Source of the DNA: an uncultured Mycoplasmatota bacterium
GTDB taxonomy: Bacteria > Bacillota_I > Bacilli_A > RF39 > UBA660
Length of the DNA stretch: 64,000 nucleotides
Direction of reading: 5' to 3'
Assembly (NCBI GenBank): GCA_946553095.1
Contig: CAMNRN010000001.1
Location: 58,899-122,898 of the forward strand
Positions 16,375-28,080 of the stretch are shown here, one piece after another. Under the pieces are notes generated by a model. The model saw nothing but the letters and a program-made list of their open reading frames with translations. It searched no databases and had not been told where the DNA came from. A program made the translations under genes and the position numbers. Every line of letters begins with the position of its first letter. Position 1 is the first letter of the stretch.

Positions 16375-18492
16375 ATGAAGAAAAATAAAAAGAATTTAAA
16401 AACAAGAATAGCAGCATTTGCTTTAGCGGCTGCAACTTTCTTCGGAGGAGTTAAGGCTTGTAATGAAATAAAAGAACATGAGCCAAACGAAGATTCGGAA
16501 ATTAATACCGAATTTAATATAGGGGACACGCCTAGTTCAGAATCAACTATAAAACCTTCTGTACCAGGACATGACCACAACCATAATAACAGTAATAATA
16601 ATCAAAATAATCAAGTAGTTCAAAACGAAGAAGAACCTAAAGAAGATGATATGGTTAAACCAGGTGAAGGATATATTAATGATGAAGGTTCTAAAAAGCC
16701 AAGCGGTAAACCAAGTGTTAAACCTAGTACAGACGAAAGCATCGACAAAGGCGAAAATGACAAAGAAGATGTTACTAAGGAAGAAACGCCAAACGCAAGT
16801 GATAATGAAGAAGCTGACAAAGAAAATTCATCTAGCTTAGATACTGAAACACCAAGCGATTCTCAAGAAAATCAAGAAAATGAAAATAAAAATGAGAATA
16901 ATAAACCAAATGAGTCTAAGCCTGAAAAACCTGGTAATGAAAATAAACCAAGTAAACCGGATACAACTAAGCCAGATAGCAAACCAGATAATAAACCGGA
17001 TAGTAAGCCAGATAATAAACCAGAAGTAAAACCACCAGTAGAAGAACCTGGAATTGATGAACCAGAAATTGACGAACCAGAACATGAACATTTATTTAAC
17101 TTAGTTATATCAACTTACTATACTTATGATAATGATACACATAATGTATGTAATGTTATAGCTTGTGAATGTGGTATAGAACAAGAAGTTGTAGTTAAAT
17201 CAGTTTCTCATAGTTTTACTAAAAATGACAATGGTGATGGCACTGTAACATATACTTGTGAATGTGGATATTCAAAAACAGAATCAATTGTAATTACGCC
17301 ACCTGAAAAAGAACATAAACACGACTATACAAAAGAAGTAAGTGCAAGCTATGCTGGAAATGATGAACATAGAATCGTAGAAACATATACATGTTCAAAC
17401 GAAGATGGAAAGTGTGACAATATAACATATACAAAAGAATTAGGAACAGAAGCATGTGGCTATGAAGATGGTGTATGCCAAACGTGCGGACACGTAAAAG
17501 AAGTCGTAAAAGAACACGAACATGACTATACAAAAGAAATAAGTGCTAGTTATGCCGGAAATGATCAACATACATTAACAGCAACATATACATGTTCAAA
17601 TGAAGATGGAAAATGTGACAGTGTATCATATACAGAAGAATTAGGAACAGAAGCATGTGGCTATGAAGATGGAGTATGTCAAACATGTGGACACGTAAAA
17701 GAAGTTGTAAAAGAACACGAACATGACTATACAAAAGAAATAAGCGCTAGTTATGCCGGAAATGATCAACATACATTAACAGCAACATATACATGTTCAA
17801 ATGAAGACGGAAAATGTGATAAAGAATCATATTCAGAAGAATTAGGAACAGAAACATGTGGATATGAAAATGGTGTATGTCAAACCTGTGGTCATACAAA
17901 AGAAATAGAACACAAACATGACTACCAATTAGTAGAAAGTAACATTACATCTGGCGGAGGAAGCCACACTATAAATGAAAAATATGAATGTAAAGGTGAA
18001 GGAATCTGTGATAATCCATCCTATGAAAATACATCTACAGAAGCTTGTACACCAGGAAACTGGGAATCAGTAGATGGTCAAGATATTAGAAGATGTACTG
18101 TATGTGGAGATACATTAGAAATTGCTGAATCACACACTTGTGTACCAGTGCTTGATCCAAACGCAGATCCATGCCAAGGTTATGACACAGTTTGTGAAAC
18201 ATGTGGAAAAGCAATGACTATTGAAGGGACACATAATTATTATTACTTAGGCGAAGAAGACGGCATGGATGTTTACGTATGTGACCACTGTGGAGACTTA
18301 CTAGAAGTCCCAAAAGTTCAAGTTCCTGAAGAAAACAACGATGAAACTAACGAACTAGAAAATCCTGAAATAGAAATGATTGAACCTCCACTATATAGTG
18401 ATATACCAACAGAACAAGAAGAAACTACAAATACAGTTTTAACTGAAAGTGAATTGAGTTTGGTTAGAACTCGTAAAGATTATGCTCGTTAA
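16375..18492 (+). CDS. secreted Cys-rich tandem-repeat protein, probable lipoprotein (705 aa)
   Basis: Signal peptide with the Cys-containing motif ...FFGGVKAC. A low-complexity N/E/K/P/D region (KPDS/KPDN periodicity). Then three 67-aa tandem modules carrying paired C..C motifs (YTCSNEDGKCD...CGYEDGVCQTCGH) plus further CxxC modules. Confidence 0.75.
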   Translation: MKKNKKNLKTRIAAFALAAATFFGGVKACNEIKEHEPNEDSEINTEFNIGDTPSSESTIKPSVPGHDHNHNNSNNNQNNQVVQNEEEPKEDDMVKPGEGYINDEGSKKPSGKPSVKPSTDESIDKGENDKEDVTKEETPNASDNEEADKENSSSLDTETPSDSQENQENENKNENNKPNESKPEKPGNENKPSKPDTTKPDSKPDNKPDSKPDNKPEVKPPVEEPGIDEPEIDEPEHEHLFNLVISTYYTYDNDTHNVCNVIACECGIEQEVVVKSVSHSFTKNDNGDGTVTYTCECGYSKTESIVITPPEKEHKHDYTKEVSASYAGNDEHRIVETYTCSNEDGKCDNITYTKELGTEACGYEDGVCQTCGHVKEVVKEHEHDYTKEISASYAGNDQHTLTATYTCSNEDGKCDSVSYTEELGTEACGYEDGVCQTCGHVKEVVKEHEHDYTKEISASYAGNDQHTLTATYTCSNEDGKCDKESYSEELGTETCGYENGVCQTCGHTKEIEHKHDYQLVESNITSGGGSHTINEKYECKGEGICDNPSYENTSTEACTPGNWESVDGQDIRRCTVCGDTLEIAESHTCVPVLDPNADPCQGYDTVCETCGKAMTIEGTHNYYYLGEEDGMDVYVCDHCGDLLEVPKVQVPEENNDETNELENPEIEMIEPPLYSDIPTEQEETTNTVLTESELSLVRTRKDYAR
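17311..17913 (+). repeat. 3 x 201-bp near-identical tandem direct repeats inside the Cys-rich protein gene
   Basis: The units start at 17311, 17512 and 17713. Copies 2 and 3 differ by about 2 nt over their first 108 nt. The antisense track ORFs beginning MYSHVRVLL at 17294-17533 and 17546-17734 mirror the same repeat. Confidence 0.85.
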
Positions 18493-18504
18493 AATATTGA
18501 AAGG

Positions 18505-25805: not shown

Positions 25806-25824
25806 TTCGAAAGGAGTGAAATAT

Positions 25825-28080
25825 ATGGAAAAATTTAAACTAAAAAAGAAAAATCAAGCTTCAAAGATTGCTGCTTTTTCGCTATTAACAATGGGTGCAA
25901 TTCAATTAACAGAGATACCTAAAACAAACTCTCTATTTATTGATGATAAAGACACTGCATTAATTTACATGGCTAATTTACAAAATTTAAAAAAGAATAT
26001 AATTATAAGTAAAGTTGATGTAGGTTATACCTATGTTAATGTAAGTATGAATTTTAATCGTAATACAGTTGCAGGTCCTAAAGACACTGACGTATATACT
26101 ATAAAGACTCCTGATGCTTGTACTATTGAAAGTGTTGAGGTATCAACAGCTCCAGACGCTCCAAATAGTATTGATAGAGCAAACAAAACAATAACATACA
26201 ACACATATGATGAGAATAAACAATATAATCATTCAGTGCAATTAAAATGTCTTGTATATACTGATAATGAATTTAAAAAGACAACTGACATTATTAAAGA
26301 TGGAAATCTTCAAATTCCTATTACAGTTACTGAGCAAATTACAACAACAAAACCAAATGGAATTACTGTTACAGAAGAAGAATTTACTTTTGGTGAAGAT
26401 ACATATGTATTTAAAGATTACCTAAATAACTATCCGACTCCAAAACCAGGCGGAAATACGACGACAATTGATGCTATAACAAATGAAGCAAAATACAAAC
26501 AATTAATCTTATGGCTTAATAAACACATAGAAAATAATATTTATGTTGGCGATTATTATTCTAATGAGGAAGAAGCAAACATAATAAGTAATTCTTGGAC
26601 TACTAAATACCTTAGTTCAAAGTATCCAACTTATGAAGATATTTTAAAAGAGATTTCTTCAGATACAACGAAATCAACTGAAATTTTACCAGGATTGGTA
26701 GTAGAACAAAATTGTGATAGTAACAACGTTTGTACTGAAAATTATTTCGTTGAAGAACAATATTATGGTGGGTTAGCAACCTATGTAATCACAAGGAAAG
26801 ATCAAAGTTGGTTAAATTTATTCTTTACTACGACAAACAAGGAAAAATTTAATGATAGCTTTAAATTCTATTTGTTTAATTATATTGATGCTGTTGAAAT
26901 AAATAATAAAGAAATGAATATACCTTTTCTACTATTAAACTATATTCAATCAGTAACAGAAGAAGGTATTTCAGCAATTATTGAAAATCCGACTATATTT
27001 GGTGTAACTAGAGTAAACTATAATGAAAATAGTACTACACTTCCAGGTGCAGGACAACTTCGTTTAATATCACAACGATTAATTCCTAAAATAGCAGAGT
27101 TAATGACTCCATCTGCTTTAAACATCTTCTATAATAATCAAGAATACATGCTTGGGGCATTTAAAGAAGGTTTGGAATTAGTAGCAAGTGAACTTAAGTA
27201 TAATGATGGTACAGTAATATCTAAAGCTGTAATTGATGATATCCTTGCAGATGAAGCTATTGCTAGTGCTATTGCTCGAAACAGCTTTGATGATCCTGAA
27301 GCAAAAGAATTTGTCGAAAGTTTTGTTAAATATGATAAAGAATCTAATAAATTCTTAAAAGTTGAAATAAAATCTGATATAGCAAACCGCAAAAACATTG
27401 TCACAATAAATGAAGTTGATGAAAGTATGAATAATATTTTTAATAACTTATCAGATCTTGAAAAAGAAAATGTAGCAATGAACTTTGGTAAAAATGAAGA
27501 TGAATCAATTGCTGTTAAGTTATCATATAAAAATGAGTTAGCAGTATATGATATTAACACTGCTTTCATAGATATTAACAAAATAATCAAATTAATTGAT
27601 GAAAATATTAATGATATTTTAAAATCTTTAAGCTATATGGTATCTGATGATACAATGACTATTTCTTATAAAAAAGGTGAAGTTAGTCGTCAAGAAGAAA
27701 ATGGCGTAACTTACATAAATTATACTTTTGAAAAAGTGGTTGAAGATCATTTAGATGAAGTAGAAGATAAACCGCTTGTTCCAATTGATAAAGAAGAAAA
27801 TCAAGAAGAAAAAGAAGAAAGTGTAGAAATTAAAAGCGATGAAGTTATTGTAGAAAAAGAACCAACAGCGGAAGAAACAACTGATAAATTGGTGGAAGAA
27901 AAGAAACCAGAAAAGCAAGAAGAAATATCTAAAGAAGAGATAGTTCCGACTGAACCTTTAGGTGAAAAAACGGAAGATGATAAAATTATTTCCGAAGAAA
28001 CAACAATCCCTAATGAAGAAATTACTAAGGTTCTTGATTCTCCAAGAAAAAGAATCGAATTGACAAGAGCAGAAGAATAA
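25825..28080 (+). CDS. large secreted/surface protein of unknown function with acidic E/K-rich C-terminal tail (751 aa)
   Basis: ATG 25825 follows RBS AAGGAG; the track start at 25816 is a GTG inside the RBS region. N-terminal hydrophobic signal anchor, then a ~120-aa EEK-rich tail. Last gene of the island. Confidence 0.65.
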   Translation: MEKFKLKKKNQASKIAAFSLLTMGAIQLTEIPKTNSLFIDDKDTALIYMANLQNLKKNIIISKVDVGYTYVNVSMNFNRNTVAGPKDTDVYTIKTPDACTIESVEVSTAPDAPNSIDRANKTITYNTYDENKQYNHSVQLKCLVYTDNEFKKTTDIIKDGNLQIPITVTEQITTTKPNGITVTEEEFTFGEDTYVFKDYLNNYPTPKPGGNTTTIDAITNEAKYKQLILWLNKHIENNIYVGDYYSNEEEANIISNSWTTKYLSSKYPTYEDILKEISSDTTKSTEILPGLVVEQNCDSNNVCTENYFVEEQYYGGLATYVITRKDQSWLNLFFTTTNKEKFNDSFKFYLFNYIDAVEINNKEMNIPFLLLNYIQSVTEEGISAIIENPTIFGVTRVNYNENSTTLPGAGQLRLISQRLIPKIAELMTPSALNIFYNNQEYMLGAFKEGLELVASELKYNDGTVISKAVIDDILADEAIASAIARNSFDDPEAKEFVESFVKYDKESNKFLKVEIKSDIANRKNIVTINEVDESMNNIFNNLSDLEKENVAMNFGKNEDESIAVKLSYKNELAVYDINTAFIDINKIIKLIDENINDILKSLSYMVSDDTMTISYKKGEVSRQEENGVTYINYTFEKVVEDHLDEVEDKPLVPIDKEENQEEKEESVEIKSDEVIVEKEPTAEETTDKLVEEKKPEKQEEISKEEIVPTEPLGEKTEDDKIISEETTIPNEEITKVLDSPRKRIELTRAEE

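Follow-up and report, generated by a model that had tools for sequence, protein, structure and literature searches.

What does a bacterial surface locus build when it encodes two SipW-type signal peptidases among a handful of secreted proteins? The question was raised by a 64,000-nucleotide (nt) stretch of an uncultured Mycoplasmatota genome (contig CAMNRN010000001.1, positions 58,899 to 122,898 of the forward strand; hereafter the window), in which seven co-directional open reading frames (ORFs) encode, in order, a Cys/His-rich repeat protein, the peptidase SipW-A, small protein 1, a 1382-amino-acid (aa) protein first called a giant adhesin, the peptidase SipW-B, small protein 2, and a large secreted protein of 751 aa (Table 1). 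All seven were found on the plus strand at the coordinates that the first-pass annotation of this DNA had given. The locus is most likely a self-contained seven-gene operon that builds a membrane-anchored surface fiber with two dedicated signal peptidases, and the fiber plus large surface protein proposed in that annotation is still the best reading of it.

GTDB genomes were scanned with an alignment of small protein 1, which yielded 80 loci, and the gene order of each was obtained from local iterative searches with the window proteins over all ORFs of the fetched loci. The operon was present in approximately 75 other genomes, mostly gut metagenome-assembled genomes (MAGs) labeled Bacilli, Tenericutes, or Mycoplasma, but also in Clostridia, Oscillospiraceae, Christensenellaceae, and Enterococcus pallens. 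The order of the genes was fixed: an optional Cys-rich gene, followed by those for SipW-A, small protein 1, a large middle protein, SipW-B, small protein 2, and a protein resembling the 751-aa product. This full order was conserved in approximately 45 of the gut MAGs labeled Bacilli or Tenericutes, and a minimal form of five to six genes was found in the Clostridia, Oscillospiraceae, Christensenellaceae, and E. pallens. No neighbors beyond the operon genes themselves were conserved in these loci, and no sortase, ATPase, or chaperone was found among them. Judged by this comparison of sequences, the operon is old and fixed. In the isolate genome of E. pallens ATCC BAA-351 (locus L082; NZ_ASWD01000001.1, approximately 664,700-668,900), the minimal operon occupies positions 9357-13578, and its sixth gene (12856-13578) begins with a TLAKY-type signal.

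Both peptidases exceeded the curated cut-off (51.85 bits) of TIGR02228, the archaeal/endoplasmic reticulum-type signal peptidase I family, SipW-A scoring 89.5 bits and SipW-B 92.7 bits, in agreement with their first designation as SipW-type. The motifs bearing the catalytic Ser, His, and Asp read SGSME, THRI, and GDAN in SipW-A and SGSME, THRI, and GDNN in SipW-B, and they were kept in both groups of orthologs. Neither protein reached the cut-off of the Bacillus SipW equivalog NF046067 (190 bits), the scores being 101.8 bits for SipW-A and 76.5 bits for SipW-B. By these scores and motifs, both are genuine SipW/archaeal-type (S26B) peptidases that look active, of the same enzyme type as SipW of Bacillus subtilis and not its orthologs. 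The two are 35% identical to each other and form two positional ortholog groups across the 80 related loci, kept together in approximately 70 genomes; SipW-A of the window is approximately 70% identical to SipW-A elsewhere, compared to 36-39% with any SipW-B. This places the duplication far back, with both peptidases retained since, and the same two observations rule out a recent duplication.

A LepB-type (S26A) enzyme of 175 aa is encoded in several related genomes, either directly 3' of the operon or beside a lone paralog of small protein 1, and therefore the SipW pair is not the housekeeping peptidase in those genomes. The description of the two peptidases as dedicated is thus supported in part, as both are encoded beside secreted proteins with a cognate-looking signal and related genomes possess LepB, but no LepB-type peptidase is encoded in the 64-kb window itself. 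The LepB gene follows the lone small-protein-1 paralog or the operon in L038 and L040-L043 (approximately 10000-11200 of each locus), and it lies downstream of the operon in L013, L015, L027, and L028. Its position beside a lone paralog suggests a second, simpler fiber-subunit locus served by an ordinary peptidase.

The unusual K/S/T-rich tails noted at first pass are present on both peptidases, where they follow the second hydrophobic segment and comprise the C-terminal 88 aa of SipW-A and 68 aa of SipW-B. Each tail region (19090-19320 for SipW-A, 25060-25242 for SipW-B) opens with a common acidic-aromatic motif, REEERKEFLEFKK in SipW-A and DEEEKEYQEFLKAK in SipW-B, and the K/S/T-rich stretch comes after it. 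Similar tail starts, of the form ...P(I/V)L(S/T/D)EE, were seen in SipW-B of other loci.

The candidate substrates of these peptidases are recognizable by their N termini. Small protein 1 has a signal peptide with predicted cleavage at GTYA↓KY, a conserved strand (KYTSSIDITDEARVAKW), and a beta-sandwich body; small protein 2 has a signal peptide predicted to be cut at TYS↓KY, then the strand KYISSFGVSDEARSTKF and a body that is small and divergent; and the 751-aa protein has a signal of the same class (PKTNS↓LF) and an acidic tail. A motif of the form T-x-[AS]↓[KR]-[YF] occurs just after the hydrophobic region in small protein 1, small protein 2, and the 751-aa class, and a cleavage-type motif is conserved in 71, 46, and 35 orthologs of the three, respectively. 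Orthologs of small protein 2 were found 3' of sipW-B in 43 loci, and orthologs of the 751-aa protein in 41 loci, in which YP[ET][ST][HN]S[KR][YF] follows the hydrophobic region. In all three predicted sites the residues at -3 and -1 are small and the one at P2' is aromatic, and each of the genes lies near that of a SipW-type peptidase. PMC10269814 reports that TasA, cleaved at GTWA↓AF with Phe at P2', needs SipW, and that the aromatic P2' residue makes TasA a poor LepB substrate and therefore a SipW client. No twin-arginine motif was present in the N termini.

Small proteins 1 (...VSGTYAKYTS....DEARVAKW) and 2 (...VITYSKYISS....DEAR..KF) share TY[AS]KY..S....DEAR..K[WF], and only this 27-residue N-terminal motif aligns. 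They had been called short paralogs sharing an N-terminal motif; the motif is indeed common to both, but they are not close paralogs, as their bodies gave only a weak match in profile comparison (65% probability over 38 columns). The body of the 751-aa protein gave less than 1% probability against every other operon class and against TasA, its relatives being confined to its own group, and the protein has no Pfam or NCBIfam family. A word-indexed search with it returned the query alone despite the 41 clear orthologs in the fetched loci, and the acidic low-complexity tail probably swamped the word index. From these features we propose that small protein 2 is an adapter or minor subunit and the 751-aa protein a tip component.

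The family of small protein 1 is very large. We recovered 523 homologs, and an exhaustive profile search with E ≤ 1e-3 gave at least 5,377 cluster representatives, of which 3,429 reached E ≤ 1e-10, the clusters being formed at 50% identity. None of the best 120 word-indexed matches had a Pfam domain or a name, and exact look-ups of the window's proteins returned no names. In 65 aligned sequences, the invariant residues cluster in the N-terminal post-signal strand, which is the most conserved part of the protein. AlphaFold2 (AF2) models small protein 1 as a beta-sandwich with two helices; the predicted local distance difference test score (pLDDT) is 82-96 for residues 91-210, whereas residues 1-46 are disordered with pLDDT below 50. 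A disordered strand beside a confidently modeled beta-sandwich supports strand donation between subunits, and monomer models of BsaA from Clostridium perfringens are alike in this. We propose that small protein 1 is the major subunit of the fiber; on its model it would be a pilin-like beta-sandwich whose relationship to TasA is unproven.

Within the same 65 sequences K29, E107, and D232 are invariant and K44 nearly so, a pattern that could also point to a covalently locked fiber, in which, once the strand is inserted, an intermolecular isopeptide bond joins a strand Lys (K29 or K44) to D232 of the body with E107 as catalyst. BsaA offers a precedent in its N-E-K triad across subunits. There are, however, many other explanations for invariant residues, and the D..DT..G motif could be a calcium site, as in AbpX; we regard such a bond as highly improbable.

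Three further observations concern the small-protein-1 gene. A perfect 15-nt direct duplication at its 3' end (20216-20245) repeats the motif of the final strand (TANQV TANQ). The gene is tandemly duplicated in L019 (1578-3117) and L024 (1096-2592), the first 55 residues being identical between the copies. The signal and strand region at the N terminus (19441-19640) gave weak NCBIfam matches to an OmpL47-type beta-barrel domain. With 19-21 bits (E = 4e-4 and 1.8e-3) they stay below the cut-off of 40 and are probably due to chance.

The role of the 1382-aa protein was addressed by comparing it with its counterparts. The first-pass annotation had assigned it Big_2 and six cadherin-like domains; the six PF12733 cadherin-like domains were recovered (E = 7.5e-70), but Big_2 was not reported by Pfam at E ≤ 0.1. 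The protein also has Ig-like repeats. Its N terminus has a hydrophobic segment with a lipobox-like LITSCSC and an SKFWGKIG motif, and the N-terminal motif is conserved in 45 orthologs. In the Clostridia and Enterococcus loci its place is taken by a short protein of 220-400 aa, here termed mid. In profile comparisons made with the N-terminal motif removed, the body of small protein 1 aligned with mid from end to end (99.5% probability, E 1.8e-22). The C-terminal 235 aa of the large middle proteins matched mid with 98.3% probability (E 1.4e-14) and the small-protein-1 body with 92%. The 1382-aa protein is therefore an elaborated member of a subunit class and not inserted cargo.

Proteins of the mid/large-middle class lack the donor motif T-x-[AS]-[KR]-[YF]. 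At their N terminus a strongly hydrophobic stretch precedes [KR][FIL]G[KR]I[GE], and in the Bacilli-type loci there is a lipobox-like LITSC(SC)TS in addition; in the window this transmembrane or lipobox segment would be the tether. In E. pallens the mid protein instead starts with a conventional signal peptide, and its C terminus, formed by LPKTG, a hydrophobic stretch, and RRRK, is a sortase signal. LPXTG occurs in a few relatives and is restricted to the anchor protein, and none of the window proteins matched Gram_pos_anchor. As the same domain is found with interchangeable tethers, the class would be the cell-attached end of the structure, and because the E. pallens counterpart is short and bears LPXTG, we interpret the giant adhesin as a fiber's base or anchor. 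The 1382-aa protein is accordingly proposed, from its domains, to be both anchor and stalk.

This homology also bears on the nearest alternative, a matrix in the style of TasA or BsaA, with loose fibers, the 1382-aa protein as an independent adhesin, and the second pair of peptidase and substrate as a redundant duplicate. SipW-type peptidases beside small secreted proteins with TasA-like cleavage motifs are what such a matrix would lead one to expect, operons for BsaA or TasA with several paralogs are known, and cadherin-like repeats are typical of adhesins. An independent adhesin would not, however, be expected to end in a homolog of the body of small protein 1, nor would minimal loci be expected to retain just that domain and a tether. 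Redundancy is likewise at odds with two peptidases that are 35% identical, fall into separate ortholog groups, and always co-occur, and with a small protein 2 that is no copy of small protein 1. We consider a matrix of this kind unlikely, and the original picture, in which two copies of one module enclose an adhesin, was abandoned on the same grounds, namely the distinct ortholog groups of SipW-A and SipW-B and the homology of the adhesin's C-terminal domain to small protein 1.

The label "TasA-like" originally given to the small proteins also failed in every sequence test. At E ≤ 0.1 in Pfam and NCBIfam, none of the window proteins matched PF12389 (TasA/camelysin), NF046066 (TasA), or TIGR04090 (BsaA), and 73 relatives from Clostridia and Enterococcus matched neither these nor TIGR04088 at E ≤ 0.01. 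TIGR04088, which models the SipW-cognate signal over 34 positions, matched none of four N-termini at E ≤ 10, while TasA scores 38 bits. As a positive control run against this NCBIfam library, B. subtilis TasA scored 513.8 bits to NF046066 and matched TIGR04088 and TIGR04090 as well. Profiles of five operon proteins compared by hhalign to 111 TasA-family sequences gave at most 14% probability, and sequence searches of the PDB, whether run with individual proteins or with a profile of 65 sequences, gave nothing relevant. The fold comparison was non-specific, the fold being a generic beta-sandwich. A model of the haloarchaeal adapter TafE matched one of the 73 relatives (E = 2e-4) and none of the window proteins; the source of this lone match was not found among ten relatives of small protein 2. 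By direct reading, three short motifs follow one another as they do in TasA: first the cleavage site GT[YW]A.[YF], then a strand that contains PG, and, as the last strand, TA(T/N)Q. We treat this shared order as a lead and not as a test.

These results bear on the possibility that there is no fiber, and that the genes encode unrelated surface or secreted proteins, such as a coat or nutrient-binding proteins, which need SipW processing by enzymes that serve here as general signal peptidases. Such an explanation is compatible with the lack of detectable homology to any proven filament protein, with the generic beta-sandwich fold, and with a 64-kb window devoid of LepB, but it does not sit well with the LepB-type enzyme encoded beside the operon in related genomes. 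Processing alone would hardly explain an invariant post-signal strand on three otherwise unrelated bodies, and an acceptor-domain protein with interchangeable anchors is equally hard to explain in this way. With the strict gene order across classes of Bacillota added, the absence of any fiber seems very unlikely.

What we favor, and hold to be reasonably probable, is a surface fiber made without sortase or chaperone and assembled by N-terminal strand donation, by analogy with TasA-superfamily filaments. SipW-A and SipW-B would cut off the signal peptides, and the freed invariant strand of small protein 1 would enter the beta-sandwich of the next subunit to build the shaft, small protein 1 being both strand and acceptor body. 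The first strand would be taken up by the C-terminal domain of the tethered 1382-aa protein, which would accept a strand and give none; held by its N terminus, this protein would fix the fiber to the membrane with its cadherin-like repeats as stalk or spacer. Small protein 2 as adapter and the 751-aa protein as tip would cap the distal end, because in both the strand is present but the bodies differ. The two peptidases would split the substrates, SipW-A processing the major subunit and SipW-B the adapter and tip, although this assignment by gene order is a guess. The hairpin 3' of the small-protein-1 gene would fit a higher expression of the major subunit.

Several findings weigh against this scheme. 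No sequence model or profile comparison ties the family to TasA, BsaA, TafE, or a solved structure, and the cleavage sites were derived from motifs only. The strand of the 751-aa protein is without the DEARVAKW part of the motif. The AF2 model of the adhesin's C-terminal domain, built on small-protein-1 homologs, is of low confidence (pLDDT 55). The Cys-rich protein and the tails of the peptidases are left unexplained by a fiber.

The tails would find a use if the SipW pair were an assembly platform, one peptidase feeding the major subunit and the other the adapter and tip so as to set the order of assembly, with the conserved cytoplasmic K/S/T-rich tails (EE(E/R)KE[FY]xEF motif) coupling assembly to an intracellular partner. 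We consider such a platform quite unlikely. Were it true, many uncultured gut Bacilli with small genomes, a large group, would have this system as their principal surface appendage, built without sortase, chaperone, usher, or ATPase.

The proposed fiber can be set beside known systems. The haloarchaeal taf locus encodes a tip (TafC), an adapter (TafE), a major subunit (TafA), an anchor (TafF), and a signal peptidase I (TafD) (PMC11821415, PMC12337348). On the reading proposed here, and judged by motifs, tafi and the present locus have in common a dedicated Ser/His signal peptidase, a small major subunit, a small adapter, and a large tip that shares only the N-terminal strand. The tafi anchor joins a membrane segment to a jelly-roll domain resembling a subunit; in Natrinema the anchors begin with a transmembrane helix and the jelly-roll follows, the same order of tether and subunit-like domain as is proposed here. 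The present locus differs in being bacterial, in having Sec-type signals and two peptidase paralogs rather than one, and in an anchor with a stalk of approximately 1,100 aa of Ig-like and cadherin-like repeats. None of the seven proteins matched DUF5305 (TafG), and no sequence homology between tafi and the window proteins was detected.

With tapA-sipW-tasA of B. subtilis and sipW-tasA-calY of Bacillus cereus, the locus shares a SipW-type peptidase encoded beside its substrates and a T-aromatic-A↓x-aromatic cleavage motif. TapA shares the N-terminal strand logic and has no sequence counterpart here; the differences from tapA-sipW-tasA are the two peptidases and the dedicated anchor with an acceptor domain. 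The sipW-bsaA-bsaB-bsaC locus of C. perfringens (PMC11580942) likewise combines SipW with several secreted paralogs, which within one operon may form heteropolymers (PMC11580942), and the BsaA fiber, whose N-terminal strand is disordered in monomer models as in small protein 1, is attached to the membrane and not to the wall. In contrast to bsa, the locus here has no TIGR04090 match and no von Willebrand A protein, and its isopeptide triad is only a candidate.

AbpX loci in Bacillota (bioRxiv 10.64898/2026.01.04.697558) have major and minor subunits, a tip, an SLH or LPXTG anchor, and a dedicated signal peptidase, and the E. pallens version of the operon has an LPXTG anchor as they do. Compared by description, the AbpX-associated peptidase has ten transmembrane helices, which sets it apart from the two-segment, SipW-type enzymes of this operon. 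Chaperone-usher pili (Fim, Pap, CS) offer an analogy only, there being no chaperone, usher, or outer membrane here, and sortase-assembled Gram-positive pili differ in that no subunit LPXTG was found among the window proteins and no sortase among the conserved neighbors.

The locus had been called an undescribed system, which holds at the level of the protein family but not of the architecture, since that has been published for the tafi, AbpX, and BsaA loci. In the literature searched we found the general concept and no description of this family or of an operon with two SipW enzymes. What would be new is an unrecognized and very large bacterial branch or analog of TasA-type filament systems in which two peptidases are obligatory and the stalk-anchor is tethered by its N terminus. 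Filaments of the TasA superfamily are characterized from Bacillus, C. perfringens, and extremophilic archaea. The locus suggests that they have a very large relative, common among the gut Bacillota of mice, rabbits, ruminants, chickens, and humans, for which neither Pfam nor NCBIfam has a model. Two apparently dedicated peptidases that are always kept are unmatched by the characterized TasA-type systems in the literature searched. The fixed operon grammar makes the role of each part directly testable, and E. pallens ATCC BAA-351, being an isolate and not a MAG, may therefore be an entry point for genetics. If confirmed, a sortase-independent surface fiber would be added to the toolkit of gut commensals, and new family models for annotation would be justified.

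Table 1. The operon genes and associated transcription signals, with positions counted from the first letter of the window
Feature	Position	Strand	Evidence or remark
Sigma-70-type promoter (TTGACA, 16 nt, TATAAT)	16282..16309	+	12/12 consensus; best site in 15500-28400
Cys/His-rich repeat protein, 705 aa	16375..18492	+	ORF
SipW-A, 271 aa	18505..19320	+	TIGR02228
Small protein 1, 283 aa from ATG at 19441	19441..20292	+	Open frame from TTG at 19336
Terminator-like hairpin, CCTATGA-ACG-TCATAGG then TTTATTT	20336..20360	+	3' of small-protein-1 gene; read from sequence
1382-aa protein ("giant adhesin")	20396..24544	+	PF12733 x6
SipW-B, 228 aa	24556..25242	+	TIGR02228, PF00717, PF10502
Small protein 2, 183 aa	25254..25805	+	Shared N-terminal motif
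Large secreted protein, 751 aa from ATG	25825..28080	+	Orthologs in 41 loci
Terminator-like hairpin, ACAAGAGC, 14-nt loop, GCTCTTGT, TTTTT	28063..28096	+	Overlaps stop codon of last gene

The promoter proposed at first pass proved to be a perfect sigma-70-like match. It lies 66 nt 5' of the first ATG, and we infer that it drives the operon. The reported start of the second peptidase gene 12 nt after the adhesin stop was likewise upheld, the ATG at 24556 being usable. The palindrome that follows the small-protein-1 gene was reported by the hairpin scan on the minus strand; as a partial terminator, it may raise the share of the major subunit. The hairpin at the end of the operon was identified by eye, its loop exceeding the limit of the scan, from which it is missing for that reason. 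Terminator-like hairpins also occur 3' of rplQ and of a small gene, orf63.

This small gene qualifies the statement that seven genes lie between the rplQ terminator and the parA promoter: the seven ORFs are there, but orf63 (15958-16149, plus strand) is an additional gene between rplQ and the operon. It encodes 63 aa behind a strong ribosome-binding site (AAGGGAGG), has its own terminator-like hairpin, and contains four Cys residues as two C..C pairs resembling a zinc ribbon; it has no Pfam or NCBIfam family. As first noted for what had been called an accessory island, no integrase or transposase was found in the immediate flanks, and in base composition the region is like the remainder of the window. 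Several metagenome contigs contain identical copies of the locus, each time with parA and parB following it, and a search of the fetched loci for rplQ and parA found these flanks only in the window's own species.

The first gene of the operon encodes an N-terminal signal, a low-complexity P/K/E/N linker, and then Cys-rich modules, and it has homologs directly 5' of sipW-A in approximately 27 related loci. No Pfam or NCBIfam family was found for its product. Of its description as a Cys-rich repeat lipoprotein, the repeat was verified at 17307-17885, where a 201-nt unit, present in 2.9 tandem copies that match at 90%, encodes Cys/His modules of 67 aa, but the assignment as a lipoprotein rests on an atypical VKAC box. 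Shorter repeats of 12, 15, and 24 nt at 16951-17082 encode a P/D/N/K-rich linker. Members of the protein's cluster span 546-705 aa, and the number of repeats in the gene is probably variable.

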